A DNA stretch of 60,000 nucleotides, from positions 35,714,001-35,774,000 of the forward strand of contig OZ076409.1 in the NCBI GenBank assembly GCA_964187785.1, in the 5' to 3' direction. The translations under genes and the position numbers were made by a program. Position 1 is the first letter of the stretch; every line of letters starts with the position of its first letter. Shown one piece after another: positions 22,101 through 47,552 of the stretch. A model generated the notes under the pieces. It was not told the DNA's origin and made no database searches. It worked only from the letters and a program-made list of their open reading frames with translations. Origin of the DNA: Amphiscolops sp. MND2022. Lineage: Eukaryota.

Positions 22101-25100
22101 TCAAAAATCAAATTTTTTTGGAAGTTTTGCTAATTTCGGTCTGAATTTGAAGATTTTTCTCAAAACAAATTGCATTTATCTCTTCAAAGAAGCCTCTTGG
22201 ACAACGATTTTTTTCCTTGTTGAACGTTTTCAACTTTCTAAGCTTGCAAGTGTCACAAAACTTTGACAAAAATTGCATAAAAACAAATCTGATTTTTGGA
22301 ATTTTTCTCAAATTCGGTCTCAATTTGAGGCATTTTCTAATTGAAAACTTGCATTTCTTTCTTCGAAAACACCTCTTAGATAACAAAGTTTCCCTTCTGA
22401 ACGTTTTCAACATTCTAAGCCACGAAATCTATAGAAAATTTGACAAAAATTGCATGAAAACGGTAAAAATCAAAAAGTTTCAATTTTTACTATTTTTGGG
22501 TCATTCTGGGGTCAACCAAAAAAATCCAAAAATCTCTACAAATACATACCGAATGATACTAATTTTACGTCAGTTGAATTCTATGGGTGAAACGCTTTAG
22601 CTTGGATATAAATTTGATGCTTGGCAAATTTTGTAAAAAAAACCCGTTCGATTTAAATATTTTCCTTTTTCATATGCAATATGGACGGAAAATAAAAATG
22701 AACCTTTCCAGCAATCTTTGGACGTTTTAGCCAAGAAATCTAGATGTCGGAACAATAGTCCTGATGTTCAGCTCCAGAGGCATTTATTGAAGTTTCCTGT
22801 TCTGTAAACTTATTAAAGCCCACATTTTTTCCCACCCACTCTTTTCTGGAAACATGTACCACGATAACAAAGTACCGCCAGTACCAAAAAGCAATTTGTT
22901 GTAGTTTTCATCTAATTTGCATTCGTTACTGTATGCAAACTAAATGATTATGATAACGATAAATTCGCACGCACTACTACTTCAATGTTCCCAAAACCGG
23001 ACCATGTGTCTTATCCCCCAATCCCGGATACACCTTGTTTCTTCTTTCACCCCAACACAAAAGCATCTTTTATGCTTGAAAAAACTTTACAGGCGAATGA
23101 AAAATTGATAGAATGAATACTTAGAGGATTGTCTCAATAGTTGTTGTTTCGATACTTGAAGCAAAAAACTATTCGAAGTTTTGATATTTTTCTGACAAGA
23201 AAAGAAAAAATACACCTCTGGAACAAGCTAAAATTGTATAGGAAAGCCCCTATTATAACCGAAAATTTCTCTGCCATAACTTAAAATGAGCAACTTTCAA
23301 CTGTAAATTAATATAAAAGATAGGATTATGTCGACATCAATTATTCAATTCGTCCAAAATTTCAGCGAAACGATGTCGACATAATGGTATTTGTACTTTG
23401 TTCTTTATCCCCCCCCCCGGACGGCTTAGGGGGAAATAAGACACATGGTCCCCAAAAACCTAGGCCTTATTTCCGCTCCCTATTTCAAACTACATCAGCA
23501 GTGCTTAACTTTTTGGTGTTGATTCCGTTTCACATGAATCATGGTGAAAAATATTGTGTCCACGCGCGGTTTTAAGCATACTTTACTGCTCACATTTCAA
23601 TAACGCTCAAGATATTTGCGACAGTGAGGATAATTTAACAAGAAGTATCTCCGAGTAACATGAATGCATTCATGAGAACCTTAAAGTATACAAATTCCGA
23701 AGGATTTCGAATAGATTCCACTAGAATAGATTCCATAGTCATTGTTCCACTTGTTGTAACACTTTTCTAGTTCATGAAAACATTAATTTGGGGCTAATGA
23801 GGCATCTTACACCATTGTCAACACTCAGACTGTCGATGGCTATTATTAATGATCTTAGACAGATAATGTCAAATAGTTTCGAGTAAATTTACACTAACTT
23901 GTCACAATAAAAGCCACAGTTTGTGAATTCAGACAAGCGTGATCGAAAACTCATAAAACTCCGAAAATGTATTCAGATGCTTGCCATTCAAAGTACGGCC
24001 GGAAAAGTCGATTATACCGAAACATGAATGAGCAGTTGTTTCCCCATGCGCAAAAAACTGAAACTACCCAATTTGGAAGTCTATTCAAGGCTTCAGTAGC
24101 TCAAAATGTGAAACTACTTGCTACAGTGGAAAAATAGCAGTTCAATATCACTTCAGCTTTAGCAGAAATTATAAACTGGCAGATTATTAAAGAAATTAAA
24201 AGAGGAAATTTCCACAGGATTACTTTCTGATGATTTTTAAGATGTTCTTCATAAGGATTAACTCTCAAAACTGACTACTCGTCCCAGTATTTTTCAAAAC
24301 ACTACGCCGCTTTCTCATTTTTCAAAAACTTTGTTTAACATTCTTGAATTGTTGAGGATAAAAATTGATAACTTGTTTATTGAAGGTTTGATATTTGTAA
24401 CATTTTAGATGTATTATAATTAGCACTTTCATTTCTAGTGAACCCAGCAACTACTCAAACTGCAGACACAAACAAGATGATCCTAATTTTCCGAAACGGC
24501 GTTTTTTCAGACTGCACACGAATGCCATATCAAAAATTTAAGTTGATGGCAAAGCTATTGAAATGAGTTCAAATGAAGAAAATTAAACATATATTTCGAA
24601 AGAACATATTTATTCCATTCAAATGTCGAATGACATCGTTGAAGTAACTCAGCTTGGAACATTTGTGGAGAATCTTGAATACCCAGATTAGAGATCTTCG
24701 ATTTAACTGATTTACCGCAAATGTTGTCATTCAAGGTTACCTCCAAGTGGTAGCAATTTTTGAATAGCACCAAAAATGATCCGTTCATCTCACGTGAAAA
24801 CAAAACCCTCATGGCTTTAGCAAAGATAGAAGCTAGCTTGATATTTTTCTGTCTTTTATACTGTTCCTTCCATTTATTTACATTTTGATATTCCTATGCA
24901 TCTAAATAAATAAACTTTCCTCATCATCTGCTTTTACGCATTTGAAGTTAATAAATACCAAGAAAAATACGACTATTATACTATCGAAAAAGTTATCCAT
25001 CAAATCAAGCTTGCTTCGATTGAATGAGTTAGCTTTTGGATTTACTAAGATTGTCATCAACACTATAGTTCTGCAAATTTTGATATTAGATTAGGCGAAT

Positions 25101-25355
25101 AAAACAAAATTAAGCAAGTAATTGAAACGAAATAACTTCAAAAATAGGCTTCTAAACGATTTATAGATGGAAAATATTGGACAATATATTCATCTGTAGT
25201 TTATCATGAAAGGGAGGAGCTTGTAAAGTTGAACTGGACTTAGAAGCAGACAAATTAACACACTGTTAAGTTTGCTGCTTCTGACGCACCCAAAAAGAAC
25301 AAAGATGGATTAACCAACGCAAACAATAACAAAAAGATCACGAACAAAAGTTACG
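18174..25355. repeat. Near-identical direct tandem duplication, 2 x ~3.59 kb (18174-21764 and 21766-25355)
   Basis: ORF track repeats at offsets 3592 and 3591 (18516/22108, 20964/24555); only about four differences seen by eye. Confidence 0.97.
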
Positions 25356-25999: not shown

Positions 26000-26143
26000 T
26001 CACTCAAGCTTTCGATATTTTGGTATGGCAGCCACCAATGTGAATTTTTGACTAGGAAGGTCTTCACAAACTTCCAATTTCAGATTCGACTCCCCGTCGG
26101 TTGTTAGACACTTCTGTGATGTTCTGTGTACAAAACAGCCCGT
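26000..26143 (-). CDS. GALNT: GALNT exon 10 (lectin gamma, stop)
   Basis: [14 protein letters not shown]...[12 protein letters not shown]...KLE*; ttttcag| acceptor. Confidence 0.88.
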   Translation of the reverse strand, partial: TGCFVHRTSQKCLTTDGESNLKLEVCEDLPSQKFTLVAAIPKYRKLE

Positions 26144-29100
26144 CTGAAAAATACAAAAACTTTGTCATTGATTTTTAACTACAGACTATATGATTTGAAA
26201 CTAGTTCAACCAGAAACCATTCAAAAATTTTTTTAAATGCCACTAGTGAAACGTCGGTAGTCCTGGGTAGATCATCATCAGAAGACCCTCTAAGAGGTCT
26301 CAGCTACAAGACCATTGTCCAGTTAACCAAACTTTTTATACGATGAAAATAAATGACAGTTTAGTAGTCTAACCTCAGGGTCCTGGGTCCATTCAATGTC
26401 TTTCTGAGGTGCATGTTGGCATTTTGTCATGATAATACTGTTATCCAATCGTTTACCATGTAAACAAAGATCGTCATGTCTAATTTTGTGATCATTTGTA
26501 TAGGCCCAGATCTAAAACAATTCAAAATTCATCTTTTATATTCTTTCTGTCAAGCGACAATCATCTTTCATATGAACAGAGCCATGACACAACACAGAAA
26601 ATGATTGTTCCCATTCAACTTTCAAGAAACTAACTTCTCTATAAGTTAGTTTCTTGAAAGTTGTAATTAAATTTAAAAAGATCCATCCCAAGATCCTTCT
26701 GATAAAGAAAACCTTCCCATTTAACCTTTTGGTGATCATTCTGATATGAAAACTCCCATGTCTCCCGAATCACATGATACGATTAGGCTTTTAAAAAGTC
26801 ATCATTTGAGCGTTAACAGATTTCTTCAACTAGTTGTTCTTAATGGAGAAAAAAGAAATATTAACAAGTTGCAAGATCCATATACCCTTCGCAAAATCCT
26901 TCACAGGCACATAAAAAATATGGTAAAGCTGGAACCAATTTTCGTTGAACATGTGATCTGAAGATGCGATACAATCGACAAAAATGACAAATTGAGTTTC
27001 AAATTTTCAAAACGATGAAATAGAATTTTAAGCACCATTGTCTTAATAAAATTCTTTCACAGAAGATCTGGAGAACTTCCTTAGAAGAACAACTTGCTGT
27101 TTGCTCAACTTTCAACTAACCATTGTTTTTTGAAATTGCGGTTCCTATAAAATGTATCTTCAATTCGACGGAGCAGCTAGTTTGTTGAGACAAAAACCAT
27201 TTTCGACTTAGAAGAATCTTTACCTGATTTCCACCTTGGCTGTGACAAAAGGAGTAGCCGGCTTTAGCTCCGTCATTGCGTGCCATTGTGTCCAGACATT
27301 CTCTGTTCTGGTTCTTGATCTGGCCAAAGTTGTGCATGTCCAAGTTGAACTGGGATGCAGGCCAGATATTGTCCAAGTACCACTTGAAGGGTTTACATTG
27401 CAGCTTTTCCTTCAGTTTTAGTCTCTCACTGATATCACCCATATCCAAATGCCTTACCGCTGAAAAATCATTTTCTACAGAAGCTCTTAGAACAAAACCA
27501 TCTTTCTTGATGGCTAACGCTTCAGCATAAATGAAAAACGGAGGAAAATTTTTTTAAATGTAAAACGACGTTCAACAACAAAATCTGTAGATTTATTGAC
27601 GCAATAAGCTACACTTAGCGTTTTGGAAAACTCTTAGTGTCCATTGAAACCTTCAGTTGTCTCATTGACAACTCAATTCAATGAATATTCATTCAAATTA
27701 TAGCTGTTGACAACAAACAAACCGATATGAAGCATCAATGTGGTAAGCAGATAAAAGGATACATTTTTCTGTGTGAAAGGAGAGCGAAAGTGCGACTAAA
27801 TGCAAAACGAGAATTACGTCTGAAGCGAAGTCATTCTGATTCTCTACCCTGAGATATTGCATTTTAGATGTTATTCCTTTAGACGGTATTCTCGAAACCT
27901 TTAAACGTGATTCGCTCCCCTATCTAGGCGTCAAATGCAAAACTTCAATTTCTTCAATTACAAGCCACGGAACAACAAAATTTCAATTTTCTGCTTTTAA
28001 TTATGGTAGCAACGACTGTTTTTAGGACTCGAGCGTAACTGGTACACAACAAAAAAGTTAAACTGATTTAGACTTTTTTGGTTCGTTTTAGGCACTTTCT
28101 ATTTTAAACTTCGGGTTTCTCCATTAAAGCGTATGCAAAGAAAGTTATTGTTTTGCCTTTGAACTCTGTGGATATTCAAATCCATGAAGGTATATAAAAA
28201 TTGTACAAAACGGCAGCAAATTTTCGCATTTTAGGGGCATTGAAGCACTTTTCAAATGTCTCAAGTATATATCCAACAAAATTAACTTTTCACAGTTAAA
28301 TTCTGTGGAAGAACCTCTATCTCTTGAGCGTTATATTTGAACATGAAAACGGCTGAGAGATCAATGTTTTCCACCTTTTCCTTAGAAAATATGCGCGGAA
28401 AATGAATAGCCTCCGCTCTATTTATGGCGGCGGCAAAAATGCTTTAGGAGTTGCTTCAATTCGTCAGCCCAATTAAGTCAAGGCAAATATATAAAAAAAC
28501 TATTCATTTGACAAACTACGTCAACCTTGGTATTGAAAAACAAGTATGGCTTCTAGTATAAATAATGTATTCCTAATGAAGTCACTTGAGAAGTTACAAG
28601 GAATTGATCGCGTTATACCATACGGCGCACCATGAGATCGGGTTTTGTTGCATTTTTCTCCAAGAAAGAGGAAAGCAGCGAGCTATCTCGTCACTTTTTG
28701 CTTTAATTTTCATCATTAAACTAATTGATTACGATTTGCATTCGAAAATTAATCTATAAGAGGGCGGGTGTGTAACACCTAGTAGGTGGCCCATGTGACT
28801 TCATAACTGTTACCTGGATTCAACTGATACCATATCTCCTTGTACTCGTCCATCCAGACCTCGGCCAGTCTCTTGGTGTTTTTGTTGATGACTTTAGTGG
28901 TTCCTCCGGGGAATACATAAGGCGTTTGTTTTCGGAACACGTGGCCCACGTGCGAACATGGCGATATCAACAGCCGCCCACCACATAGCCATACCTACAC
29001 AGAAAAGCTTTCATCGCTAAAAACATTTCATTGTCAACCGATCAATTGATACTTTACACTACAAAGATCACGTGGATGGAGAAATCTTCTGTAATTATCT

Positions 29101-32100
29101 TCCGAATTTTTCAAAGTCATTTTTCACGAATTCTGACGTGTCTTAAGTGAATTAATTCGTCCCACCAGCATTTTACAGTGGATCCCGGATAAAATCAACG
29201 CCAGCGGAAGGACTGATGAAGTTTCTCATAACTCACATTTGCGGATTTCATAAGGAATTCAATTGGTTGGTAGTCGGGGCTAAAATACGCATTGACTACA
29301 AGCATTGTGAGACTTTAGCGCGGCAGGGGCTCGCGCTAGCGAGCCCCGGCGCGCCACTCGGTTCATTGTTTGAGTATGTAATTTTTTCGATTTTTTTTTT
29401 CAAATTTCGAGTACTGTAAAAGAGAATACTTGACACTTGGAAGTCTTTTTGCTATTTTTGAGCCTTGGATATGGCGCCGACTTGGGCCGGTCCCGGCTTG
29501 TTTCATCAAAAAATTGGTGTGACAAGTATTTCAATAGCAGTCTGGAGTTAACACTTTACAGAATCATGAAGCATGGTATACACCTATTGGAAGAGCGTTC
29601 AAAAATTATCAAGACTGGAAAACTTGAAAAAAATAGTGTGAGGAAAAACATGAGATACCGCCATATAAATATCCTTTACTTGGCTTTTTTAAAAGGAAAC
29701 CGCGTGAAGTGAATTCAGTCACGCATGAGTTGCATTTGAAGTGACACTTTGGAGATTAGGAAATACGGATTCATTGGACACTTTCATTTACAGCGGTCAT
29801 TACTACTGTGGATATTATCAGTGAATCATTTATGCAATGTTTTCGAAAAAAAATGAAAGAATCGAACTTTTAAAAATTGACATTTGTACTGTAGCCGTAA
29901 TGGAAAACTGCATCAGTGATTTTTTAAAGATCAACAGCGGTTTAAATTGGAACATTCATTGGCAAGCAAAACAAAATGACCAAATCCATCAAAACACTAA
30001 TTTAATGGAGCTCCTTAATCCTACAGAATATTAGCTAATTTTGGAGTGAAACAATGCAACTTCACATTGGAATCATGATGACGTACTCTGAAAGATATTT
30101 CCAAGTTTTCGGCTCCCCACACGTCCATACCGGCATCGTATGTTCCAATCTCTTCGAAGTAGTCTTTCCTTATGGCAAAAAGGCCACCAGCCATAGTTGG
30201 GGTTCTGAAACACTTAGCTATCAACATAAAGATGTGCTAAATCTTGCCAAAATTGATATGGGCTTACGTCACAGAATTATTTGACACGAATGAACTCAAA
30301 ACACAAATAAAATCATGCTTGGCTCCTTTTTACATGCATATCGTGACAATTACCATGCATCAAAGAAACAACCGATTTTATTAAACTCTGTTCCTATGTG
30401 TTCCCATCGATGCTCTCTAAAACTTATTCAATATTATTATTTGCAATTTTAGTTTCTTTCAATAACGAAACTCTGATTTTGATACTACTCACTGCATAAA
30501 AACAGCCGATAAAATTCACAATTTGAATGCAAGGTTCTTTATGAAGCCAAAAACATCTACTATATCATGCGTTGAGTTAATCAACAGTATGATGAGAACG
30601 TACAATTGCATAACAGTAACAAAACATGTTATTTTATTAACCCATTTGACATGTCATGGATCGGTGAAATCTAGTTGTACTAACTACGTTACACTTTCAC
30701 ATTTGAAACCCGAGTGACGGATGTGACACCCTGTGATGTGGCACAACCCCACCCCCGCTTTGACCTCGAATATTTGACATACCAAGACTCCAATGTGATA
30801 ACATGAACGCCACGAAATATGTACAAATCTCTACTCTTTGCAACATTGTTTTGAAGGTCAAACATGGTCTCATTTGTGTTTTAGTTCAACCTATTTTTCA
30901 AAGAGAAACCATTCCAACCCCAATTCAATGAACTTCAAACTGATTCTTTCAAAGGTTTTACAGGAAGTTGGCATGAATCTTGTAATGCCCATCCAAATGA
31001 CCACGATGATTGCCGAATTTCACTGAGACATTTCTCAATGAGGGCAATCCGCAGTAAACGTTTTCTATCTTTCAGGGTTGAGAAAGCCATTGATCGAAGT
31101 CGCAGAGAAAGAGGAAGGAATGGTTGCCGGGGAATGAGCATGATATGACATGGTGTTTTGGGCTTGATAGAAGCTACTACTAACTTGACGGGGTCACTGG
31201 GATCCCCAGTTTGCATGGATTTGAGTAAGGTAGTCCACGTGAAAGAAAGCTTCCAGGTGAAACTGCCCAACACTGTATTCACAAACTGGTACTTGAAGCT
31301 CTGCTCGTTAATTACATCAATAACTGGACTAATTACGGTAGCTCTAGAACAAGCAATTAGCATCTCATTAGCAGCGCCCAGGCACACAAGGCAGCAGAAG
31401 CAGATTAATTAATGTATGTACTCATCAAAACAGGCAGTTGTCAATCGCATAAGGCACAGGCAGGCAGGACTGTTCAAAAACACTTCTAAACCTTTTGAAT
31501 GACAACAAAATTGAATACATGAATGATAAAAATGATTGAAAAATGTAGTAGAAACGTTATCACGCTTGTCATCTCAATTTATCATGTGTGCTGCATGTTT
31601 TTGAATTTTACAGGCACGTTTTACCTCAGCTCGTTATATTTACCATTTGAAACTGGTGGCCTGTTTTTTGACATTTAAGTATCAAACAATTATCAACCGA
31701 ACAGTACGGCACTTGAACTAATTCAGAATTTGACCACGGATTTGAAAATTTCATAACTATACATCGTTTGTTATAATGAAGCAAGTTCCTCTGTTTGATC
31801 TTGACCATGATCAGAGGGTATTAAGAATTGAGAAAAATTAAACGCTGAAGATTGATGGGTTTCAGTCGCACTTTTGCAAGTCCTTAAGTTGGCAATTAGA
31901 ATCACTTATATTGCAGCTTTGCAAGTTTTATGGATACTAAAGATGGACAAAATATTGTTCGGTACCAGAGTCGAAGAAAAGTAAGGTGGGACTGGTTAGA
32001 AGCTTGGAAAAATCGCCTATTTTTTTATCGGAGATCGCATCTTGACATATTAACATTCAGCAAGACTATCTGATAAAACAAAAACGGTATAAAAAACTAG

Positions 32101-35100
32101 TGGAATGTTTGGAATTGAATTCCATGCATGCATCCAACTGATGGCACTTAATGTTTTAACCCCCTGACCATGGTTGTGAATAGAGGTGACTGAGAAGTGA
32201 ACAGGCCTGCATACAGGACAAGCACGAGATCCCGCTCAGGATCACATAAAAATCCGTCGAAAAGAATGAGCACAATCTGTGGTGTATTGCAAAATATAGT
32301 GCGTTGAACAAATAATAATTTTACGTAAGTCACAACTACTTCAAAACAATTACGATGCAGCTTTTATATGCTATATTAAAAAAATGAATTTAAAAACTGA
32401 AAAAGTCGGTGTGTTTTTATTTTACCAAAATCTTACTCTTCTCTTAAAATACAACTACGAACTCTGTGATATCTAAAACGTTCCCAGGAAACGGTTTCTG
32501 GGACATGATTTAAACTTATCACTGAAAGCTTATTCTTCATAATCGTAATTATTAAACTCGAAGGTTGGAGGAATTCGGTTATTTTTTTTAGATGAAAACC
32601 AAATTGACTACTTTGATGAACAAGTGTAACGACAGGCATCGTATACTGTTGAAGAAACTGGACAAATGCGCAACTGAACAGGCAAAAATATTATAAACAG
32701 CAGCAGCTGAACTAAACGTATCAGCTAAGCGCTCATGTCATCATCGCAGCCAGCCATCGTAGCGGTAGTAAATGATGCAATAAAAACAAATCAAAGAAAC
32801 CAACAATCATCTATCGAGCAGGTGTTAATGCAACGTTGGTAACTTGTAACTAGAACACGTAGTAACTGTACTGAAATGGTGGTGCTAATGAGTTAATGAT
32901 TTTTTGTTTCGGGCTTCGAGGCTCGCTTCTGACCTGACGGGTTGGGTTTGGTCTGGGAAGCGTTTGGCTTGATAGGCGGCTGGTACGTGGTACCAGCGAA
33001 ATGATAAGCGCCAGTTGAAACCACCCCAGATGTTCATACTGGCTTCCATGTACGCAAATGTCTCGTCACTTATCGTGTCAATTACAGGTGACACAACTGT
33101 CCTCCTATGATGCAGTATCACAACATTACTGATTGAGCACAAGGAAGAAAAATACCTTGAATAATCTCTGCTTTGGATGAAATCAATCTAGAATCAAAAG
33201 CGTCATTAAAAACGCATCGAAAGCATTCTTATTTAATTTCAACCCAGTTCGCTTCTGACAGTTTAACTCACTGACAAGGCAAATAATTTAAACCAGAAAA
33301 AAATCAGTACCATGAATCAGTACCTAAAGTACCATGAACAATTGACTATTATCCATATAAGAAGTATTTATTTACAGATATTACAGTAAATGATGATCCA
33401 ACAAAGGCATCATCGTCCACGGTCCAAAAAAGTACACTTTGGCTAGACGACAACAGATGATATTGAAATGACAAGATGACCTATTTAGAGGCAGTTGAAG
33501 CCAATGTAGGAAGTAGTGCAAGGCAAACGGATGATACGATGAACTTTGGCCGTCTTGTTTGGTCACAATACATCACAACATCAAATCACGACAAAAACCC
33601 AGATTCCATTTCACGTATTAACAATTACAGTAGCGTTCTAAAATATCGCAACCTCATAGCATAAAATGGCAAAATTCAAAACCAAATATCTCATAAACTG
33701 TCACGAATACAAAGTTTTGCCAGCTAGGAAAGTTTCTTAGAATTTTATCTAGTTTACAAAAATGTTTGTTTGAAATTTCTACGACCGTTACCAGAAAAGT
33801 TAGAAATTGCAAATTTTGGTAAATTTTAATTGAAATTTGAGTTTTTTCGAAAATTGAGGAACTTAGAATAATTTTTTTGGGATTTTTTTTCATTGGGAAA
33901 CTTCCTATAATCTCCCGAACCTACTGAATTGTTTTGATCGAGAATTTTTTTCAAATCAGATAAAATACACTATATTTTGTGTCTATGAGCACTGAAGTAC
34001 ATGTATTAAGATAGGCTATAAGAATTGTATTTAGAAAATTGATGATTTTTATTTGAAATCGAAAAAGTTTTCCGATCAAATTATACCAGCATCCTCAGGA
34101 GATTTAGGGACAAATGATGGACTGAAAATTTTTCAAAAATATATTTTCAACTTTGTGAAAATCCAGAAAAAGTACAAATTTGATTAAATTTCCAATTTCT
34201 AACTTTTGTAATTTTTGTCGCAGAAATTTCAAACAAACATTTTTGTAAACTAGATAAAATTCTAAGAAACTTTCCTAGCTGACACTTTTTCGTATTTGTG
34301 ACAGTTTTCAAGAAATTTGGATTTGAAATTTGCAATTTTAAGCATTGGAGTTGCGATATTTTAGAACGCTACTGTACTTCATTGCTGCTACCGATACACC
34401 GGATCATTTTTTAACAGTTTACACAAGAACGAGGAGCTTTCAATGCAAAGCTAATCGATAATGGTGGTAAAATTTGGTTAACTCAGCTTTCCCATAACTT
34501 TTAAAGAGGGACGTAGCAATGATCAAAAACGTGGTACCCACTTCCACAGCGACCGCTTGATTCCAGTTGTTTTTCCTCTGTTAGAACGAAGTAAATGCAA
34601 GTATTCGATGTGCATTATTACCTCAAGCTGCACTTTGTGGTTACAAGCAGTCACACAGAAACATGTAATTTCATAAAAAATTCCATACTCTAGATTGATA
34701 GAAGTTAATTCCCCTGAGCTAAGAAACGGACAGCGCAACAGTGACGAATATTTTGAGAAAATCTTCTCAATTGTTCGAAAGCTCTTTTTAATTTTAGACA
34801 TTACCAATAAAAGTTGCTCTTTTCACATTTTCCCTCAAATACTTATGAACTGTCAGCCAGATAAATCAATGAAAAGCATGTAAAAGCTAATGAAAAAGGC
34901 CGCATATATACTGCTGAATGAATTTTCATGGAAGTCTGATTGCAACTACGCGATTATCTCTCTCATTTCTTAGGGGAACTCAAAAGATCTTGGCCAGAAG
35001 CTATCTCGACTTTGCATTTTCCAATCGTGACTTGAAACCATCGCCTGAGAAAATAAATTCCCAAGATTGCTTGTTAATCAATTTAGAGCTTTGAACAACA

Positions 35101-38100
35101 TAATTAACATGAATAAAATGTTCAACTTTCATGTGCGATTCAAGTCACGATGATTTCATGTTTTTCTTTAGATCACCGGACAGCATTATGGAAATGATTT
35201 TGTATCACCTTTCGAATCCTTTGTCTGCAGAAACAATCAAAGTCCTATTCTAAGAAAGGAAACCTATTTGAAATGATTTGCGTCCATTGAAACGAGCTTT
35301 GAAAACAATTACCAAGTCAGGCGATGTTCATCTTTTCCTGTGAAGCGTACCGCCAGGAACCAAAGAACTGAGAGGTTTTCTCAAAGGTTTCATAGCTACC
35401 CAAGCGAATTTAATTTCCTTTGATTAGTTGGCCCCTCAATGCTCAAACTGAAAGCCAACTTCAGTAGACTTGAATTTGTGCTTTATTTTCAAGACCATAT
35501 TAAAGAGATACGCCCTATTTGTAACGCCCAGCTGTATCAAGGTCTGTTTCCATCCTATTCGTTTTTGGTTTCTATCGTTCCTTTTCTCGACATCAGAAGC
35601 AGTGTTCACTTTCGATTTTAAATAAAATATTTTACAGTACAGTGTTATGGACGTATAACCACCTCCATTTTTGTTCATCTAAAGGTCTTTACAAGAACAG
35701 TTCGTTATAAAGCCAAATTTAAGTGAATTGGTTCTAACTTTGACCGTCATAAAACAAAATGTGATAATTTTCTGTACTTGCGACGAATTTTCCATCGGAT
35801 AAGTTTCGGCGAGTTGCTTTTCGACAAGTTTCGATAAGTTTTGATCAGTTGTTTTCGACCAGTTTTTGACGAGTTTTCCTAGGTTCATTCAAAGAAATAT
35901 TTTGAACAATTTTGTGTTTTTATGGCGGTCAAAATAAGAACCAATTAACTTAAATTTGGCTTTCAAACGATTTCTTTATAACGACAAAAATTGTTCAAAA
36001 ATTTCTTCAAGGACTACTTTGAATGAATTTAGGAAAACTCGTCAAAAACTGGTCGAAAACAACTGATCAAAAATAATCAAAACTCGTCGAAAAGCAACTC
36101 GCCGAAAGTTATCCGATGAAAAATTCGTCGCAAGTAAAGAAAATTATCTCAGTGTGTTGTATGGCGGTCAATGTAAGAACCAATTCACTTAAATTTGGCC
36201 TTACACGGCTTCTTTAGAAAAAACACTATAATTCCCAAAATAGTGCATGTTATAAAATTGAAACATAAACTTATTGAGGGTAGCGTATTACAAATTTTAA
36301 GAATTTTATACAGACAGTCACATAAAATCATAATTAACACATAATTAGCTAAATCTAAAGTTTGTCCAAGAACCCTTTCCATAAGATTCAACTGATTGTT
36401 CGAATTGTTCTTTATAACGAATTGTTCTGGAAATGACCTTCAGATGAAAAAAAATGCAAGTCGTTATACGGGCATACCATTGTACTATAAAACATTTTAT
36501 TTAAAATAGGCCCCTCCGGGGCTCAGTACTATTTCTGCTTTAATCTTTATTTTTTTGAAACAAAAAAATCATTAATAAAAGAATCATATCTGGAATACCA
36601 ATACACTCTTGTTTAATCATTATTCAGGCACAATTACATGTAATCACTGTACAAGTTTACACCGCCTTTAAATCTTCTCGGACTAAAGAAAATATAACTA
36701 CTAAGCGTAGACGAAGTTTCGCATTCGCATTTGAATGCAGGCGAAGCTCTCCGAGAACGAATAATTAACACTCATTCGCTTCATCTCAATAACTCGGGGC
36801 AACGAAAGCACAATTACGAACATTCTCTTGCTCCATCTCAATGACGTCAGCATACAAATGGATAATTACCACTAGCTCGTTCCATCGCACTAGAATTGAA
36901 TTTAAATCTCTCGCTTACACTCACTGCCGAACAAAATATCTGAATTATTCAGTTGGTCCGAAAAATTGTTCTGAAAAAAAGTAGACGCTTCCAGATTTCA
37001 ATAAAATTCCTGCTAAAGCAGAAATATTAAAAATCAACAGTCAGCACTGCCTCTGTTTTTTGAAGAACCCTTTGTGATTTTTTACCATCCAATCTGTTGC
37101 AAAATATCAACAAAAGTAAATCGGACCCTTTAGTCTCGTCCGGTTTTGCATGTTACGCTGAAAAAGAAAAACTTAACAGTTGTTCCCTGGGCCAAATGGT
37201 ACATTTTGCGTCTTAAAATTCTAAAAAACTTGCAGAACTATTTCGGTCAGTTCGTGTGGATTGAAAAAAGACCCCATGTAGTTTCAAGGAGACTAAAACT
37301 GTGAAATACTCCAAGGGAGTAACCTTTAGCCTCTTTGTGTACCCTTTAGTTCTTAGGCGTGAAGCCTGTAAAAAAGGGCCTTTCAATAAGTTAAGCGACC
37401 TTTAGAACAGAAAACTAGCAACTGTAATAGTCGGAACACATCCTAAAAATACGCCGACTAAAAACATCAAAATAGAAGTAAAAATAGGAAGTGCCGAAAA
37501 ATGCCCAAACGGAACTTTTTCTTTTCGAAAAACGTTTTCTCCAACTGGAGGCATTGAAAAAACCAAATTGGCGGAAGATCTTCTGAAAAACAGTTCCTGG
37601 AAAAATCGCACATCAACAAAAAACCTAAAAAGGAACAACCCTTTCAGCTCTTGAAACGTATTACCGTAACAGAAAACATTTAAAAAACGAAGATGGACGA
37701 CATTTTGGTGGAATGAAAAATTTCAAAAAAGTCACAGTACCTAGAACAAGACAGGAGCGGCCCAAATCGGCGCCATATCTAAGGCTCAAAAATAGCAAAG
37801 GACTTCAAAGTGTCAAAGTATTCTCTTCTACAGTACCTGAAAAACCCAAAAAAGGACCTTTTCGCGTTTTTTAACATCCATTTTCGCAAAACATCAAAAG
37901 ATTGAGGGGGGGACCCGTCGGGGAATTTTTTCCGAAAAAAATTCTCACAAAGCCGAAAAACTGAAAGGAGGGACCCTTCAGTCTCTCCCGGTACTGTAAG
38001 TTACGCGGAAAAAGAGGGAAAACCTTTTTGGTTCAGTTCGCAAAGCCAAGTGATTCAATTTGGGACCATAAAATTTCGCAGAACTTTTAAGAACTATGTT

Positions 38101-41100
38101 GGCCAGTTCGTGTGGATTGAAAAAAGACACTCTTATAGTCGCGTGTCACTTCATGAAGTGCCAACTGGAAAGCGATATTATGCGTGAAAGTGGAAATTTC
38201 ACACATCAATTAAGGAAAATTAATACATTAGCACTGGGTAGTTCCTGCGGGTAATCTATAATCATTCGACAAGTTTGCTCTCAATTAATTTTCGACCAGT
38301 TTTCCGCTGTCACATTTCTACGAATTGCATTCGGCGAGTTTTTTGCGACATATTTTCCGCATACCACTTTGATTTTGTCAATCAGCTCCAGCAAAAATAA
38401 ATTTTACCGGTTGATGAAAAAATTTACGAACAACAAATTGTACAGTTCCTCGGGAATTTTGTCGGTGTAAAAACAGATCGAATATGAAAAAAATTGGTAC
38501 CTTTAGACATTACGAAGGTCTTCAACCCAATGGTCGCTATGAAAACAGGTCCCTGTAGGTGCAGTTGTGTTGGGGCACTCTATTGTACATAAGGTCTAAA
38601 ATCTATATCGAGGATACCACTAGCTAGGACTTGAAAATTAGGGTGGTTTCACAAAATATAGTTGGAGACAAAACCTACCATTTACAACCACGAGACTTCC
38701 GGGACAAATTTTTTGGCGACATGCTAACAACAAGCCGAGAACGGCCAAAGTCGGCGCTATATCTAAGGCTCAAAAATAGCAAAAGGACTTCAAAGTGTCA
38801 AAGTATTCTCTTCTACAGTACCTGAAAAACCCAAAAAAAGGACCTTTTCGCGTTTTTTAACATCCATTCTTGCAAAACCTCAAAAGATTGAAGGGGACCC
38901 GTTGGGGAAATTTTTCCGAAAAAAGTCTCACAAAGCCGAAAAACTGAAAGGAGGGAGCCTTCAGTCTCTCCCGGTATTGTATGTTACGCGGAAAAAGAGG
39001 GAAAACCTTTTTGGTTCAGTTCGCAAAGCCAAGTGATTCAATTTGGGACCATAAAATTTCGCAGAACTTTTAAGAACTATGTTGGCCAGTTCGTGTGGAT
39101 TGAAAAAAGACACTCTTATAGTCGCGTGTCACTTCATGAAGCGCCAACTGAAAAGCGATATTATGCGTGAAAGTGGAAATTTCACACATCAATTAAGGAA
39201 AATTAATACATTAGCACTGGGTAGTTCCTGTGGGTAATCTATAATCATTCGACAAGTTTGCACTCAATTAATATTCGACCAGTTTTCCGCTGTCACATTT
39301 CTACGAATTGCATTCGGCGAGTTTTTTGCGACAAGTTTTCCGCATACCACTTTGATTTTGTCAATCAGCCCCAGCAAAAATAACTTTTACCGGTTGATGA
39401 AAAAATTTACGAACAACAAATTGTACCGTTCATCGGGAATTTTGTCGGTGTAAAAACAGATCGAATATGAAAAAAATTGGTACCTTTAGACATTACGAAG
39501 GTCTTCAACCCAATGGTCGCTATGAAAACAGGTCCCTGTAGGTGCAGTTGTGTTGGAGCACTCTATTGTACATAAGGTTTAAAATCTATATCGAGGATAC
39601 CACTAGCTAAGACTTGAAAATTAGGGTGGTTTCACAAAATATAGTTGGAGACAAAACTTACCATTTACAACCACGAGACTTCCGGGACAAATTTTTTGGC
39701 GACATGCTAACAACAAGCCGAGAACGGCCAAAGTCGGCGCTATATCTAAGGCTCAAAAATAGCAAAAGGACTTCAAAGTGTCAAAGTATTCTCTTCTACA
39801 GTACCTGAAAAACCCAAAAAAAAAGGACCTTTTCGCGTTTTTTAACATCCATTCTTGCAAAACCTCAAAAGATTGAAGGGGACCCGTTGGGGAAATTTTT
39901 CCGAAAAAAGTCTCACAAAGCCGAAAAACTGAAAGGAGGGAGCCTTCAGTCTCTCCCGGTATTGTATGTTACGCGGAAAAAGAGGGAAAACCTTTTTGGT
40001 TCAGTTCGCAAAGCCAAGTGATTCAATTTGGGACCATAAAATTTCGCAGAACTTTTAAGAACTATGTTGGCCAGTTCGTGTGGATTGAAAAAAGACACTC
40101 TTATAGTCGCGTGTCACTTCATGAAGCGCCAACTGAAAAGCGATATTATGCGTGAAAGTGGAAATTTCACACATCAATTAAGGAAAATTAATACATTAGC
40201 ACTGGGTAGTTCCTGTGGGTAATCTATAATCATTCGACAAGTTTGCACTCAATTAATATTCGACCAGTTTTCCGCTGTCACATTTCTACGAATTGCATTC
40301 GGCGAGTTTTTTGCGACAAGTTTTCCGCATACCACTTTGATTTTGTCAATCAGCCCCAGCAAAAATAACTTTTACCGGTTGATGAAAAAATTTACGAACA
40401 ACAAATTGTACCGTTCATCGGGAATTTTGTCGGTGTAAAAACAGATCGAATATGAAAAAAATTGGTACCTTTAGACATTACGAAGGTCTTCAACCCAATG
40501 GTCGCTATGAAAACAGGTCCCTGTAGGTGCAGTTGTGTTGGAGCACTCTATTGTACATAAGGTTTAAAATCTATATCGAGGATACCACTAGCTAAGACTT
40601 GAAAATTAGGGTGGTTTCACAAAATATAGTTGGAGACGAAATTTACCATTTACAACCACGAGACTTCCGGGACAAATTTTTTGGCGACATGCTAACAACA
40701 AGCCGAGAACGGCCAAAGTCGGCGCTATATCTAAGGCTCAAAATTGTAAAAGGGGAGGCCCTTCGAGCTTTGTGAAACTCCAGCTGGCTACAAAATATGA
40801 AAAAAAATTGAGGGGAACCCTTTGGGTACTTGAAAAAAATTCCCATAAAATTTTAAAACTGAGATTTTTGAACAGTGTCACAGTGCCGAAAAATGTACAC
40901 AGAGGCGAAGCGGTGCTTCGCAACACATGACGAAGACATCGATTATTTTAAAGATAGCTCTACGTTGTATATATATTAAAGATAGCTCTACGTTGTATAT
41001 ATATTAAAGATAGCTCTACGTTGTATATATATTAAAGATAGCTCTACGTTGTATATATATAAATCGTACATATTCAATCGCATGCGTATATATTCAACAG

Positions 41101-44100: not shown

Positions 44101-47100
44101 AGGAGCAACCGCCACAACACGAATTAGCCTTACATGACAACTGTTGCAACCGCCATACTAGGTGAAGAATGTATTATGCGGACAGACAAAAGAGGGGAAA
44201 GCGTAACTAAAATGCGAGTAAAACGTGATTAGTTCAAGTTCCTCCCCAGAGGTAGATAGTTCAACGGCTCAAGATTGTTGAGACGGTGGTGACGACAGAC
44301 ACAAGACAGAAAAACAAAGGAGTAGCTAGCGTTCCCGGCATAATTGAGCCCAGAGACACATATGCGTGTATTTCAAGTGATAGAGGCTTACAACCTCAAG
44401 TTATTATTGCTACCAACGAACAGGGCGCTAAAATTTCAAGAGCCAAGTCACGTGACGGATCAATAAGAAAACATGGGTGTACAAGGTATTGATTAAATGG
44501 TACACTTGAGCAGCCAGTCACGGAGGATCAGGATCAGAGAGGAATACAATTTTATTATGCAACACCCTGGACCATGTGCAATTTTATAGTAGAGTACAGC
44601 GAAAAAAGAACCCCAACACGCGTATCGACGGAGTTTTCACAATTGATTGATTATTTATAACAGCAGTACTTACCGTCCACTTTTTACGACCACCTAAGTT
44701 CTACAGCATTGACAAAAGTTACAGAGCATAGATTATTCAGAGTGCTTTAAAACCGACTGATTTAATTTGTAGATGATACCTCAATGAAAAACACTCTATC
44801 GCTATGGCATGACATCATTTAGTTTCAAAATGGTTTGAAAAACTTTGACTTTCCCAAGGCCATATTCTAGTATCTTCGCCAATTAAGAAAATGTCGAAAA
44901 CCTATTTAATATTGAAAAGTTTCAGTACTTTCAGGGAGCATAAACTAACATTTTCAATACTGATAACAACAAGTGTTTCTCGAAAAAGGAAGATGGCAAA
45001 CAGTCGAAGTAACAACTATAACAACGGTAGTAATAATGCTTGATTTGTTACCTTTCTACATTAAGTTCGTGCAGAAGAGGCTCCATCCAGCCGTCGGAAA
45101 CCTCTATGTGGGCGTCAAGAAAGATGATGACTGGCGTGTCTGCCATGGCGGAGCCCTTTAACCGGCCCCTGATGAGCCCAGTCCTGCTGGGCATCCTGTA
45201 GATACGTGTGGGAAAGTTGAACTTGTGTGTCAAAAAGGCATCTAGCGGCTCTTTCAGGTGATCTACGAAACAAATCAACATGTCCTTCGTTAACAAAAGA
45301 ACAAGTTCTCAATGTCTTAATCAGAGCCCAGCAGAAAGCCAAATGAATAGTGCAAAATAAACGAATCGCCCAAAGACACTTTCTGAAAAATCCTTAAAAA
45401 TCTTAGTGCCAAAAAACATTTGAAGGGAGGTCTTAAAAGGGCTCTTTCTAGCAGAAAATATTAGAAAAACAAAAAGGGAGCGTTTTTTTCAGATAAGATT
45501 TGAGAAACTGCACACATGAAAAAACCCAAAGGCTATCTTCACAGCCATAATATTTTGCAATTCAAATGTGAAAAAAATGAAGGGAGCCTTTGAACCCTTA
45601 TGGTCCCCATTAGGTTTTAAACTTGTTGAAAACTTTTAACCGGATTGAAAAAATATAAAATGTACAACCGAAAAGCCATTATAAAGATCACGCTATATTT
45701 CACATTGATTAAAAAATGAAGCTCATCGAATGAAAGCTTCAGAATTCTTTTCCGAATAACTTTCATTGCAGCATCTACAAAAAATGAGATGAATGCAACA
45801 GAGACCATATATCATATTGCAGCAGAAAAGATTTCCTCACAAACAAAGTGATGTTTGTCCGCAATACAAGTTTTTGTTATTTCAACTATTTGCATTAACC
45901 CAATACTTGATAACTAAACATGTGTAACGTTTTGTCACAAGAACATATCCACCATAACGCTAAAAATAGTAAGAGTAGGACGATAGACCCAAATTTCTCG
46001 TGACATCAAAGAGTTTGAAAGGGGCCCGTTTCAAGTCGGGCGTCTTTATTGAAAGCGACCACAAACTAGGCGAAGGTCCAACAAATGTATCACCAGAGTA
46101 ACTTCTTTCAGTTGACCTGCATTTTCCCCAATCAGATTACGTCACAGAATGTTTGATCACATGTGACTGACTTACCTCTTTCGCTTGCGTCATCGATGAG
46201 AATGATTTCCTTAAGCAAAGAATGTGGAGTCCTGTTGGCGATACTGTAGAGACTTCTGATTAGTGTAGACCACGCCTCGTTGTGAAAAACTATGATTATT
46301 GTTGTCAAGGGCAGATTTTTGATGTCATATTTCCTGGCTCGGCAACTGAAATACAAACACGGTAATCTCGAAACAAATCATATATCAAACTAGACGGCTG
46401 CTCAAAACGGATAATTTGTTACCAAAACCAACACTACTTTTAGAGTTCAAAAACAAAGAAAAATTTGACTTCAATAGGATTCACATGATACGAGTAAAGC
46501 GAACAAAGTTTTCATCGGCGGCTCTAGAGATTCACAGAGCCAAAATTTGAAGTGAATGGTGGCTTTATGGCTTTCCTTACACTAAAAATCAGTTAATAAT
46601 AGTGGAAAAATTGACAAGTAGGCAAATCAAATAAAGTACTGACTGAGAATTTCTGTAGTCCGGCAAAGTTCTGTTGGGCGATATTCTGTCACTGGCAACG
46701 ACGTTGAACTGGTTTTCTTTGAACCTTTCTTTAGCCAGCTGTTCGTCCATGGCACCGAGGACTACAGCTTTACCTCCCTCTCCGGGTCCATCGGGGAAGG
46801 AAGAGACCAACTTCTCCCAGAAACCTAATGGCACAAAATAGGACGTTGCTAGTTTTAGTACCGACTTGTACCGATAAACGAGGTCCCAAACAAACAAAAA
46901 CTGAATACTTCTCAGCACGACTAACACCCACTCATATATTGAGTATTTTAAACATTCAAATTTAGCACAAATAAGTACTCAAAACTCTCAAATTAAACTT
47001 TCAAATGCTCATCGTTTTAGCTAAATATTTAAAATAGCCTTCCCAATAAATACTTTCCGTAAATGCCCATGTGTATGATGTGTAAATACACACAAGTATA

Positions 47101-47552
47101 ATTGACCGAAGCATTTCACGTAACATGCAAAACTTTACAAAACCGGTATTAAAGGAAATACCCGCTATATAACAGAAAATTTTATTCACCTTTCTCAGCT
47201 AAAACATACTTGGTTAAAAAAATCTGACACAGTTCAAGACTTGCGTAACATCAAAAAAGCAAGAAAAATAACCTCTCAACCAGCTAATTTCTTCATCCTT
47301 GTCTTTATCGTTCTTCAGTTGTCTCAGCTTTTCGGCTGCCCTGCTTTGACACTTGACGTCACCTTCCTTACATGGAAGATGTTCATTCAGGCCATTTTTT
47401 AGAGGTTTAACTCCGTCTACAGCGGCATCGTAAGAAACCATGGGCGACACTTTGCCAGAAAAATTTGCACTGTATATTGCACACATAACAACTATATACA
47501 AAATACCCGCGACAACGAGCACTTTCACAAAGGCCTTTTGGTTAGCCTTCAT
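26000..47552 (-). CDS. GALNT: Polypeptide N-acetylgalactosaminyltransferase (GT27, GALNT1/13-like), 609 aa with exon 5A or 605 aa with exon 5B
   Basis: Exons 47552-47273, 46824-46644, 46345-46176, 45262-45052, [33104-32934 or 31343-31185], 30204-30087, 28994-28814, 27459-27224, 26511-26374, 26143-26000. TM anchor, [19 protein letters not shown], DxH (FLDAH), [31 protein letters not shown], ricin-type lectin (CLD...CHSQGGNQ). All phases consistent. Confidence 0.93.
26374..26511 (-). CDS. GALNT: GALNT exon 9 (lectin)
   Basis: [17 protein letters not shown]...KCQH...EWTQDPE; phases 0 to 0. Confidence 0.88.
27224..27459 (-). CDS. GALNT: GALNT exon 8 (end of catalytic domain, linker, lectin alpha)
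   Basis: [27 protein letters not shown]...CLD...CHSQGGNQ; phases 1 to 0. Confidence 0.93.
28814..28994 (-). CDS. GALNT: GALNT exon 7
   Basis: VWLCGG...[15 protein letters not shown]...[11 protein letters not shown]; phases 0 to 1. Confidence 0.93.
30087..30204 (-). CDS. GALNT: GALNT exon 6
   Basis: [11 protein letters not shown]...[11 protein letters not shown]; phases 2 to 0. Confidence 0.93.
31185..31343 (-). CDS. GALNT: GALNT exon 5B (divergent paralogous alternative exon)
   Basis: 159 nt, ttgttctag|...AA|gttagt, phase 2-2, no stops; [52 protein letters not shown]. Confidence 0.85.
32934..33104 (-). CDS. GALNT: GALNT exon 5A (canonical-like alternative exon)
   Basis: 171 nt, catag|...AG|gtcaga, phase 2-2; [56 protein letters not shown]. 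Confidence 0.92.
33628..34374. mobile_element. Tc1/mariner-type palindromic MITE (747 bp)
   Basis: TA|CAGTAGCGTTCTAAAATATCGCAAC...GTTGCGATATTTTAGAACGCTACTG|TA; inverted similarity extends a few hundred bp inward. Confidence 0.88.
35615..36504. mobile_element. Foldback/MITE element with long imperfect inverted repeats
   Basis: 35615-35893 is inverted at 36018-36203 plus 36408-36504. Confidence 0.7.
36505..37030 (-). mobile_element. Helentron-like element, family 4
   Basis: Colinear with 16318-16915, including the GGCCCC/GGGGC hairpin and TTCCTGCTAAAGCAGAAAT end. Confidence 0.6.
37745..40743. repeat. Tandem array of three ~984-bp units plus a short partial fourth
   Basis: Unit starts 37745, 38729, 39712, 40697; identical ORFs at 38631 and 39614; each unit is a family-1 element plus a spacer containing a MITE fragment. 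Confidence 0.95.
40949..41060. repeat. Minisatellite 4 x 28 bp (TAAAGATAGCTCTACGTTGTATATATAT)
   Basis: Four perfect head-to-tail copies, no spacers. Confidence 0.95.
41120..41190 (+). pseudogene. tRNA-derived Pol III cassette (Ala-TGC-like loop; degenerate)
   Basis: A box TGGCACAGTGG and B box GGTTCGAATCT at tRNA spacing, followed by TTTT; cloverleaf stems poor. Confidence 0.6.
41743..42197 (-). mobile_element. Helentron-like element, family 4 (diverged copy)
   Basis: GGCCCCTGCGGGGC...ATATTTCTGCTT start; body similar to 36505-37030. Confidence 0.55.
42320..43245. repeat. Composite repeat, permuted copy of 37268-38170; includes family-1 element 42573-43007
   Basis: 42320-43005 matches 37490-38170; 43030-43245 matches 37272-37485. 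Confidence 0.8.
45052..45262 (-). CDS. GALNT: GALNT exon 4 (DxH motif)
   Basis: GLIRGRLKG...[19 protein letters not shown]; phases 1 to 2. Confidence 0.93.
46176..46345 (-). CDS. GALNT: GALNT exon 3
   Basis: [21 protein letters not shown]...EIILIDDAS; |gtaagt donor; phases 2 to 1. Confidence 0.93.
46644..46824 (-). CDS. GALNT: GALNT exon 2
   Basis: [10 protein letters not shown]...[21 protein letters not shown]; phases 1 to 2. Confidence 0.9.
47273..47552 (-). CDS. GALNT: GALNT exon 1 (cytoplasmic tail, TM helix, stem); may extend 5' to acceptor at 47606
   Basis: [28 protein letters not shown]...; donor G|gttatt, phase 1. Confidence 0.8.

Follow-up and report, generated by a model that had tools for sequence, protein, structure and literature searches.

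Duplicated exons that switch specificity are already known in the GalNAc-transferases (GalNAc-Ts), which begin mucin-type sugar chains, from pgant5, pgant9, gly-5/gly-6 and GALNT13. The alternative exons of gly-5 and gly-6 probably lie in the lectin domain. The closest precedent for the gene described here, absent from the preliminary description of this DNA, is Drosophila pgant5A/B, a GalNAc-T1 orthologue in which homologous segments of the catalytic domain alternate and give isoforms that differ in peptide specificity (PMC12776162). Both genes thus belong to the T1 subfamily and have an alternative homologous segment within the catalytic domain. However, pgant5A/B is described there as swapping the flexible loop and a helix-turn-helix (residues 398-457, exon 7 in our gene) with modest changes, whereas our gene swaps the acceptor-peptide groove at about T2 246-301, with copies that share 21 of 52 residues. 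Drosophila pgant9A/B likewise uses an alternative exon pair, there a tissue-regulated switch of GalNAc-T specificity, but the pair encodes the alpha subdomain of the lectin domain (exon 8) and not the catalytic groove (PMC6115407), in keeping with the earlier statement that pgant9 varies in its lectin domain. C. elegans gly-5 (exons 9a/b/c) and gly-6 (8a/b), whose splice variants had been cited earlier, carry homologous, mutually exclusive exons of 3n nt in GalNAc-T genes; these are 102-111 nt long, and introns of only 11 and 34 nt sterically prevent two of the joins, whereas the intron in our gene is 1590 nt (PMC4165533). GALNT13, Pgant5 and gly-5 have been presented as a convergent family of independently evolved tandem-duplicated exons, and our gene is like them in gene family and in class of event (PMC9741552).

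Here we describe a GalNAc-T1-like gene with two diverged but conserved groove exons, 5A and 5B. Splicing probably picks mainly one of them, giving two enzymes with different predicted target peptides. A search of the main texts of largely open-access articles listed no publication that treats this pair of exons or the GalNAc-Ts of acoels; the event tables of PMC9741552 may bear on precedent.

Gene organization

The window (the whole 60,000-nt stretch of DNA analysed) carries the gene on its minus strand, in 11 exons including 5A and 5B and over a span of 21.5 kb (Table 1). Its source is likely an acoel worm, and the nearest named relative is the acoel Convolutriloba macropyga. The GT27 architecture of N-terminal membrane anchor, GT-A catalytic domain and C-terminal ricin-type lectin is present: PF00535, PF02709 and PF00652 all score above the Pfam cut-off in P0002, a protein from a relative, and an N-terminal helix spans residues 3-31 of the B isoform as modelled by AlphaFold. 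The DxH metal motif is DAH, encoded by exon 4, and the Gal/GalNAc-T motif WGGENxE takes the variant form WGAENLE in the window gene, P0002 and C. macropyga, with WGGENLE in 114 of 117 other homologues. The nearest relatives are T1, T13 and pgant5, by best sequence and structure matches and by a tree of the 5A segment (96/99), and GalNAc-T1 is the top PDB match of 5A (E 2.3e-19). Both isoforms are predicted to transfer GalNAc to Ser/Thr.

Table 1. Exons of the GalNAc-T1-like gene and arms of a candidate RNA helix, in window positions
Feature	Position (strand)	Description	Basis
Coding exon 1	47273..47552 (-)	Signal-anchor helix and stem	tblastn of P0002; GT-AG and open-frame check
Exon 2	46644..46824 (-)	Stem and start of catalytic domain	tblastn of P0002; frame check
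Exon 3	46176..46345 (-)	GT-A strands	tblastn of P0002; frame check
Exon 4	45052..45262 (-)	DxH motif; donor common to 5A and 5B	tblastn of P0002; frame check
Exon 5A	32934..33104 (-)	T1-like acceptor-groove exon (~T2 246-301)	PDB match; C. macropyga X1/X2
Exon 5B	31185..31343 (-)	Diverged, conserved second copy of groove exon	Spliced alone in P0002 and C. macropyga X3
Exon 6	30087..30204 (-)	Gal/GalNAc-T motif WGAENLE; common acceptor	Sequence; frame check
Exon 7	28814..28994 (-)	Flexible loop, single copy; counterpart duplicated in arthropod pgant5	tblastn
Exon 8	27224..27459 (-)	Linker and first lectin repeat	tblastn of P0002; frame check
Exon 9	26374..26511 (-)	Lectin	tblastn of P0002; frame check
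Exon 10	26000..26143 (-)	Lectin end and stop	tblastn of P0002; frame check
Candidate helix, 5' arm	32883..32892 (-)	Intron +42 to +51; 10-bp intron-end helix	Lead only
Candidate helix, 3' arm	31364..31373 (-)	Intron -30 to -21; overlies the first of two branch-point-like motifs (CUAAU)	Lead only

The coordinates, translations, AG/GT borders and 2-2 phases of 5A (171 nt) and 5B (159 nt) agree exactly with the preliminary description, as do the flanking borders at 45052 and 30204, and both exons are stop-free in frame as it said. Their homology is evident from a protein alignment score of 95, where 2000 shuffles averaged -25 and never exceeded 17. The DNA is diverged, again as described: the two are 49% identical over 52 aligned codons (30/52, 29/52 and 18/52 nt at codon positions 1, 2 and 3), and 13 of the 21 shared residues use different codons. 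Across the splice site, the two donors are identical at 13 of 16 nt (family D19). Directly ahead of 5B, the final 20 nt of the intron, 31344..31363 (-), hold the second CUAAU, a pyrimidine tract and the AG; this stretch translates to the same residues in P0126, a translated sequence from another genome, in which the intron downstream of 5B diverges three codons past the exon. There is no third copy of the groove exon in the 60,000-nt window. A 5A query against the gene's own genome (G000) gave four matches, namely 5A, 5B and two identical copies of a GalNAc-T paralogue on contig C3; an exon 6 query gave one match among three candidates scored.

Use of the two exons

5B is a real exon. P0002, a Logan protein of 605 aa, lies on a 2051-nt contig and must be spliced, since the gene spans 21.5 kb. 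It is identical to the B isoform at 576 of 604 residues (95%) and carries 5B (51/53 identical to that of the window) without 5A. A further copy of 5B, P0126 from a third genome, is identical at 49 of 52 residues. In C. macropyga, RefSeq lists four isoforms of the orthologous gene by automatic annotation (XP_075266178/180/181/182, X1-X4): X1 contains both exons, X2 (XP_075266180) only A, X3 (XP_075266181) only B, and X4 skips both. Each exon therefore occurs alone between exons 4 and 6 in sequences of relatives, B in P0002 and X3 and A in X2. This bears out the earlier suggestion that 5B is a used and conserved exon: it is spliced in P0002, modelled in X3, kept in the third genome, and conserved in C. 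macropyga. Three candidates (two from C. macropyga, one unrelated) included no 5A-bearing transcript of the near relative, so the evidence for use of 5A consists of the C. macropyga models and its conservation. A metagenome scan for 5B loci gave 490 pattern matches, with none confirmed. Because both copies are conserved in a relative and 5B is apparently spliced alone, one gene likely makes two enzymes.

The proposed mutual exclusion may be leaky. Each exon is used alone in P0002, X2 or X3, but RefSeq also contains X1 and X4, so that exclusion is not absolute in C. macropyga. All four joins are open (A, 609 aa; B, 605; A+B, 662; skip-both, 552), which includes the in-frame A+B form anticipated earlier and rules out enforcement by frameshift and decay. 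The A-B intron, at 1590 nt, is too long for a steric block, and its 79 AG rule out a distant branch point with an AG-free zone.

Pairing between the two ends of the A-B intron would form a helix that is a candidate splicing switch, though only a lead. Its length of 10 bp was equalled in 23 of 3000 shuffles and is the greatest among 10 introns (5-7 bp in the others, one control intron being mis-bordered by 1 nt). Its energy is not favoured (8 of 60 shuffles as good), and folding of the whole region gives it a pair probability of 0.007. As partner of the element after 5A, the 5B acceptor ranks fourth in a scan of 4283 windows; in the acceptor's own scan that element falls outside the best eight. 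The post-5A element might instead pair with the 5A acceptor, but this competing pairing is weak (-12.7 vs -20.8 kcal/mol) and was rejected.

Conservation and divergence of the groove

Exon 5 was expected to line the acceptor groove, and it does carry groove residues: Val255, Leu270, Phe280, Trp282 and Tyr284 of T2 map onto it by alignment and account for five of the eight hydrophobic residues named in the groove of T2 (PMC4432651). We compared both copies with 113 of 117 T1-type orthologue segments, four having been dropped for other length or form. Thirty columns are at least 90% conserved, of which 5B departs from 16 and 5A from 9. 5B keeps the residues matching T2 I253, D254, V255, F274, W276, F280 and W282. 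Its substitutions include G273S, N275T, R281T and Y283T; the 263-271 loop also differs, and the loop after W282 is shorter and less basic. G273, N275, R281, Y283 and S267, all changed in 5B, are each 100% conserved in the 113 segments; 5B breaks positions fixed from aphid to penguin. The F-T-W of 5B at 280-282 is shared with human T12, an active enzyme, and Ala occupies the 273 position in T10; the position of T2-A266 is reported to set GalNAc binding in T12 (PMC6789641).

Between the window and C. macropyga, 5B is identical at 44 of 53 residues (83%), 5A at 43 of 57 and the whole protein at 475 of 646 (73.5%), and the tree path is 0.19 for 5B vs 0.63 for 5A; C. macropyga 5A has an insert of about 24 residues. 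The loss of 16 of 30 near-invariant columns with retention of the Phe/Trp proline pocket looks like neofunctionalisation. Modelled with AlphaFold, the B isoform reaches a mean pLDDT of 82.8 and a TM score of 0.92 (target length) to mouse GalNAc-T1 8v9q; its groove loops 303-307 and 318-324 fall below 50, and 38 of the 40 alignment rows are 5A-like.

Proposed explanation and alternatives

We hypothesize that a tandem duplication of the groove exon predates the split from Convolutriloba, and that 5A retained a groove of T1 type while 5B changed rapidly at first and then stayed almost constant. The swapped segment forms half of the acceptor-peptide groove, with the donor, metal and lectin sites predicted to be common to both isoforms. 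Because 5B keeps I253, D254, V255, F280 and W282 and alters 273, 275, 281, 283 and the loops, the B isoform would still use Pro at +3 and may rank neighbouring residues or prior GalNAc differently, so we infer that A and B differ in peptide specificity. Exclusion is likely leaky and regulated, with the 10-bp helix as a candidate switch; an A+B form would act as A with a looped-out insert, and a skip-both form would be inactive.

The origin of 5B could be different: it may derive from another GalNAc-T paralogue, through conversion or exon shuffling, or date from a much earlier duplication, rather than being an acoel-line copy of 5A. In a tree of 23 segments and 56 columns with other GalNAc-Ts, 5A joins the T1 orthologues (96/99) while 5B is placed outside them, among long branches, and forcing the two into one clade costs 13.8 log units (p-AU 0.066), which neither rejects nor establishes such a clade. 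However, long branches meet in this tree, 5B has the borders and phases of 5A and a nearly identical donor, and the pair have S250, V252 and S279 in common, unlike 97%, 91% and 96% of the orthologues. In the same genome, the single paralogue examined is open in one frame across the 5' border position. We consider such an origin unlikely. Selection of 5B for a non-catalytic or low-activity role, such as lectin binding of glycoproteins or damping of A with little GalNAc transfer, would fit the five altered invariant positions and the low-confidence groove loops, but the DxH and Gal/GalNAc-T motifs sit in shared exons, 5B keeps I253, D254, V255, F274, W276, F280 and W282, and the T12 and T10 residues noted above argue against it, which makes it quite improbable. 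That 5B is a dead copy or an assembly artefact is scarcely credible, given its splicing in P0002, its modelling in C. macropyga, its presence in a third genome and a conservation above the gene average.

Minor in-frame joins are expected noise for exons of 3n nt. A regular production of four forms from two independent cassette exons (two active enzymes, one with a 53-residue insert and one without a groove) nevertheless has several points in its favour: C. macropyga RefSeq contains all four models, the junction residue of X1 is S (R at the other joins) as an exact splice join would give, every join is in frame, and the A-B intron has 1590 nt with 79 AG. In the predicted fold of the A+B form (mean pLDDT 72.9), 5A also takes up the core and residues 303-392 loop out, and C. 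macropyga 5A already tolerates its insert in that loop. The RefSeq isoforms, however, are models that carry no abundance, the sole full transcript-derived protein found (P0002) has one copy, and a disordered, looped-out 5B would leave its conserved core groove residues unexplained. We regard independent cassettes as unlikely, and favour a choice of mainly one exon.

Comparison with known systems

The same groove segment is present in tandem in arthropods, in four copies in KAK7083906.1 (Halocaridina) and two in KAG8222620.1 (Ladona), both pgant9-like gene models; the first Ladona copy matches PGANT9. Unlike the window pair, these copies belong to another subfamily and have other exon borders, the repeats ending before F280, and they are gene models only. 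Among the long arthropod matches, 12 of 16 were rejected as groove-exon copies, as they duplicate the flexible-loop exon instead. The C. macropyga orthologue (X1-X4, automatic predictions) has both exons, with the insert in 5A. Taken with the arthropod arrays, the pair suggests that the groove segment has been duplicated repeatedly.

A broader reading would see the groove exon as a specificity cassette that has become swappable more than once, through separate duplications in acoel T1 genes and in arthropod pgant9-like genes, the latter with up to four copies in an array. In the acoel gene, 5B would then turn a peptide-preferring T1 into a T12-like follow-up enzyme that prefers glycopeptides, with an F-T-W pocket and, within the 263-271 loop, a conserved Asn; a helix looping out the 1.6-kb intron would make the choice. 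As a whole this is improbable; if true, a single gene would both start and fill in mucin O-glycosylation.

The residues that set GalNAc-T site preference are a live question, for which isoform pairs differing in a single segment are the cleanest test, and pgant5 and pgant9 have been so used. The pair described here offers a ready two-protein experiment, as it exchanges the segment that bears five of eight named hydrophobic groove residues on an otherwise identical enzyme. It reveals no new class of mechanism. The swaps in pgant5, pgant9 and GALNT13 use exons other than the groove exon, the three GALNT13 isoform pairs compared differing either at their N-termini or in the final lectin exon.

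A conserved pair of alternative exons

Exons 5A and 5B form a real, conserved alternative exon pair, and their position, length and frame (see table) are those that the preliminary description had assigned to them. Their homology is far above chance (alignment score 95, against a mean of -25 and a maximum of 17 in 2000 shuffles), and the DNA is as diverged as had been claimed, with 49% identity across 52 aligned codons and 18/52 at third positions. No third copy of exon 5 lies within the window. Besides 5A and 5B, the 1.07-Gb genome contains two more matches to the exon 5 segment, both in another GalNAc-T. An exon of this other gene is present twice, 7.4 kb apart (loci L003 and L004), with 2519 nt 100% identical, either through recent duplication or as an assembly artefact.

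The host gene encodes a GT27 enzyme with a membrane anchor, a GT-A domain with DAH, a Gal/GalNAc-T motif and a ricin lectin domain, and its closest matches are GalNAc-T1, T13 and pgant5. Among named relatives, the acoel Convolutriloba macropyga is nearest (475/646 residues identical, 73.5% overall), so that the window most likely comes from an acoel. The window, C. macropyga and P0002, a Logan protein of a near relative, have WGAENLE as their Gal/GalNAc-T motif, and 114/117 other homologues have WGGENLE. The tandem units and palindromes of intron 4 (11.9 kb) are likely non-autonomous transposons, and the head-to-tail duplication just beyond the gene's 3' end is either recent or an assembly artefact.

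Coordinates of the exon pair, its host gene and other features (window positions unless a contig is named)
Feature	Position	Strand	Description
Exon 5A	33104-32934	minus	171 nt, AG..GT, phase 2-2, stop-free in gene frame
Exon 5B	31343-31185	minus	159 nt, AG..GT, phase 2-2, stop-free in gene frame
Coding exons	47552 to 26000	minus	11 exons, every intron GT-AG (mapped with the relative's protein)
Exon 6, with the Gal/GalNAc-T motif	30087-30204	minus	
Intron 4 repeats	37745-40753, 33623-34379, 35708-36203		about three tandem 985-nt units, two long imperfect palindromes
Head-to-tail duplication	18174-21764, 21766-25355		3.6 kb, 99.86% identical
Open frames	about 53090, 584-3, 7487-7245	minus	by eye, presumably retrotransposon integrase, gag-like and hAT-transposase fragments
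Open frames	8659-3305	minus	several, coiled-coil-like sequence; probably exons of an adjacent gene
L003 and L004	G000:C3:57313709-57324250		doubled exon of the other GalNAc-T, same genome assembly

Use and conservation of both copies

P0002 (605 aa) runs from exon 4 through 5B to exon 6 without 5A and is identical to the window B form at 576/604 residues. Because the window gene covers 21.5 kb and the Logan contig 2051 nt, the contig derives from a spliced transcript, and its source is a sister species or else a diverged population. A further 5B, on an ENA contig from another genome (P0126), is identical at 49/52 residues. Evidence for 5A use comprises just two RefSeq models of C. macropyga, X1 and X2, and one genomic ORF. 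Both exons are kept in C. macropyga.

Between the window and C. macropyga, 44/53 residues are identical in 5B and 43/57 in 5A, the lower value being partly due to the region in which C. macropyga 5A has an insert; conservation of 5B exceeds that of the whole gene. The tree path to C. macropyga is 0.19 for 5B and 0.63 for 5A. Orthologues show conservation of at least 90% at 30 columns (113 of 117 homologues used, 4 dropped); 5B departs from them at 16 of these columns and 5A at 9. We infer that 5B underwent rapid change and then stasis, as predicted for a new function. The insert in C. macropyga 5A (P0004, P0151) comprises about 24 Gly/Pro-rich residues in the loop after W282 (human GalNAc-T2 numbering, by alignment) and occurs in the genomic ORF too.

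Origin of the second copy

The sequences favour a tandem duplication that took place within the acoel lineage and predates the divergence from Convolutriloba, because the two exons have identical borders, 13/16 nucleotides in common across donors and three common departures from the orthologue consensus. 5B may instead have been imported from a paralogue, since 5A and 5B do not come together in a 56-column tree that takes in other subfamilies; a joint clade is neither rejected nor shown (p-AU 0.066).

Predicted effect on the acceptor groove

Exon 5 aligns with about residues 246-301 of human GalNAc-T2. Both copies keep P251, I253, D254, F274, W276, F280 and W282; of these, I253 is the gatekeeper of the donor pocket. 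5A carries T255, A266, I270 and R281; 5B carries V255, V266, V270, S273, T275, T281 and T283, and one of its loops is shorter by one residue (gap position uncertain). The 5B loop after W282 is shorter and less basic, with a net charge of -1 against +1 in 5A (gap position again uncertain). Eight hydrophobic groove residues are described that include Val255, Leu270, Phe280, Trp282 and Tyr284, and the proline pocket earlier ascribed to this segment is borne out, Phe280/Trp282/Phe361 forming the Pro-x-Pro pocket (PMC4432651). GalNAc binding in T12 is decided by position A266, and the flexible loop is propped by position M258 (PMC6789641). T12 also has the F-T-W of 5B.

The predicted B-form model has a GalNAc-T1 fold (TM 0.92 against 8v9q, normalised to target length). 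Its confidence is low precisely at the two changed loops, and what it says is limited by an alignment in which 38/40 rows are 5A-like. Most likely, the B form is an active enzyme with altered acceptor preference, and the pair would act as a specificity switch.

Probable either-or splicing

C. macropyga RefSeq models contain 5A (X2), 5B (X3), both (X1) or neither (X4), and the X1 junction residue is compatible with an exact splice join. Co-inclusion had been expected to stay in frame; all four joins do so in the window, and decay therefore cannot police A+B or skip-both transcripts. In the predicted A+B model 5A occupies the core and residues 303-392 are looped out, so that co-inclusion may perhaps be tolerated. 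Steric block by a short intron, as in gly-6 and gly-5 with introns of 11 and 34 nt (PMC4165533), was rejected, the A-B intron being too long at 1590 nt.

The longest inverted repeat within 30050-33620 pairs +42..+51 of this intron with -30..-21, and its 3' arm covers one of two CUAAU motifs preceding 5B. Within the window there is a single occurrence of the 10-bp core on each side. This helix is the longest among 10 introns, and is equalled by 23/3000 shuffles in length and matched by 8/60 in energy, for windows picked after it was noticed; when the whole region is folded, it has a pair probability of 0.007. As a lead only, the candidate helix could either mask 5B or make the A-B intron effectively shorter. 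Overall, either-or use of 5A and 5B is likely, possibly leaky.

Comparison with known GalNAc-T exon pairs

We found no published account of the 5A/5B pair in the openly accessible literature. The family is known for convergent duplication of alternative exons, and GALNT13, Pgant5 and gly-5 are listed together (PMC9741552). The pgant9 variants differ in the lectin domain, specifically in the alpha repeat (pgant9A/B; PMC6115407). Two pgant9-like gene models contain tandem copies of the groove segment, four in the shrimp Halocaridina (P0127, KAK7083906.1, residues 19-260) and two in the dragonfly Ladona (P0132, KAG8222620.1, residues 1-140); these are probably unannotated alternative-exon arrays. 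The echinoderm T1/T13 proteins that were compared have a single copy of the segment, of the ordinary type. In pgant5A/B the catalytic flexible loop differs, as does specificity (PMC12776162). The corresponding segment is doubled in 12/16 long models checked and single in the window gene. 5A and 5B would thus act in the manner of pgant5A/B, but they differ in the exon used and in their much deeper divergence.
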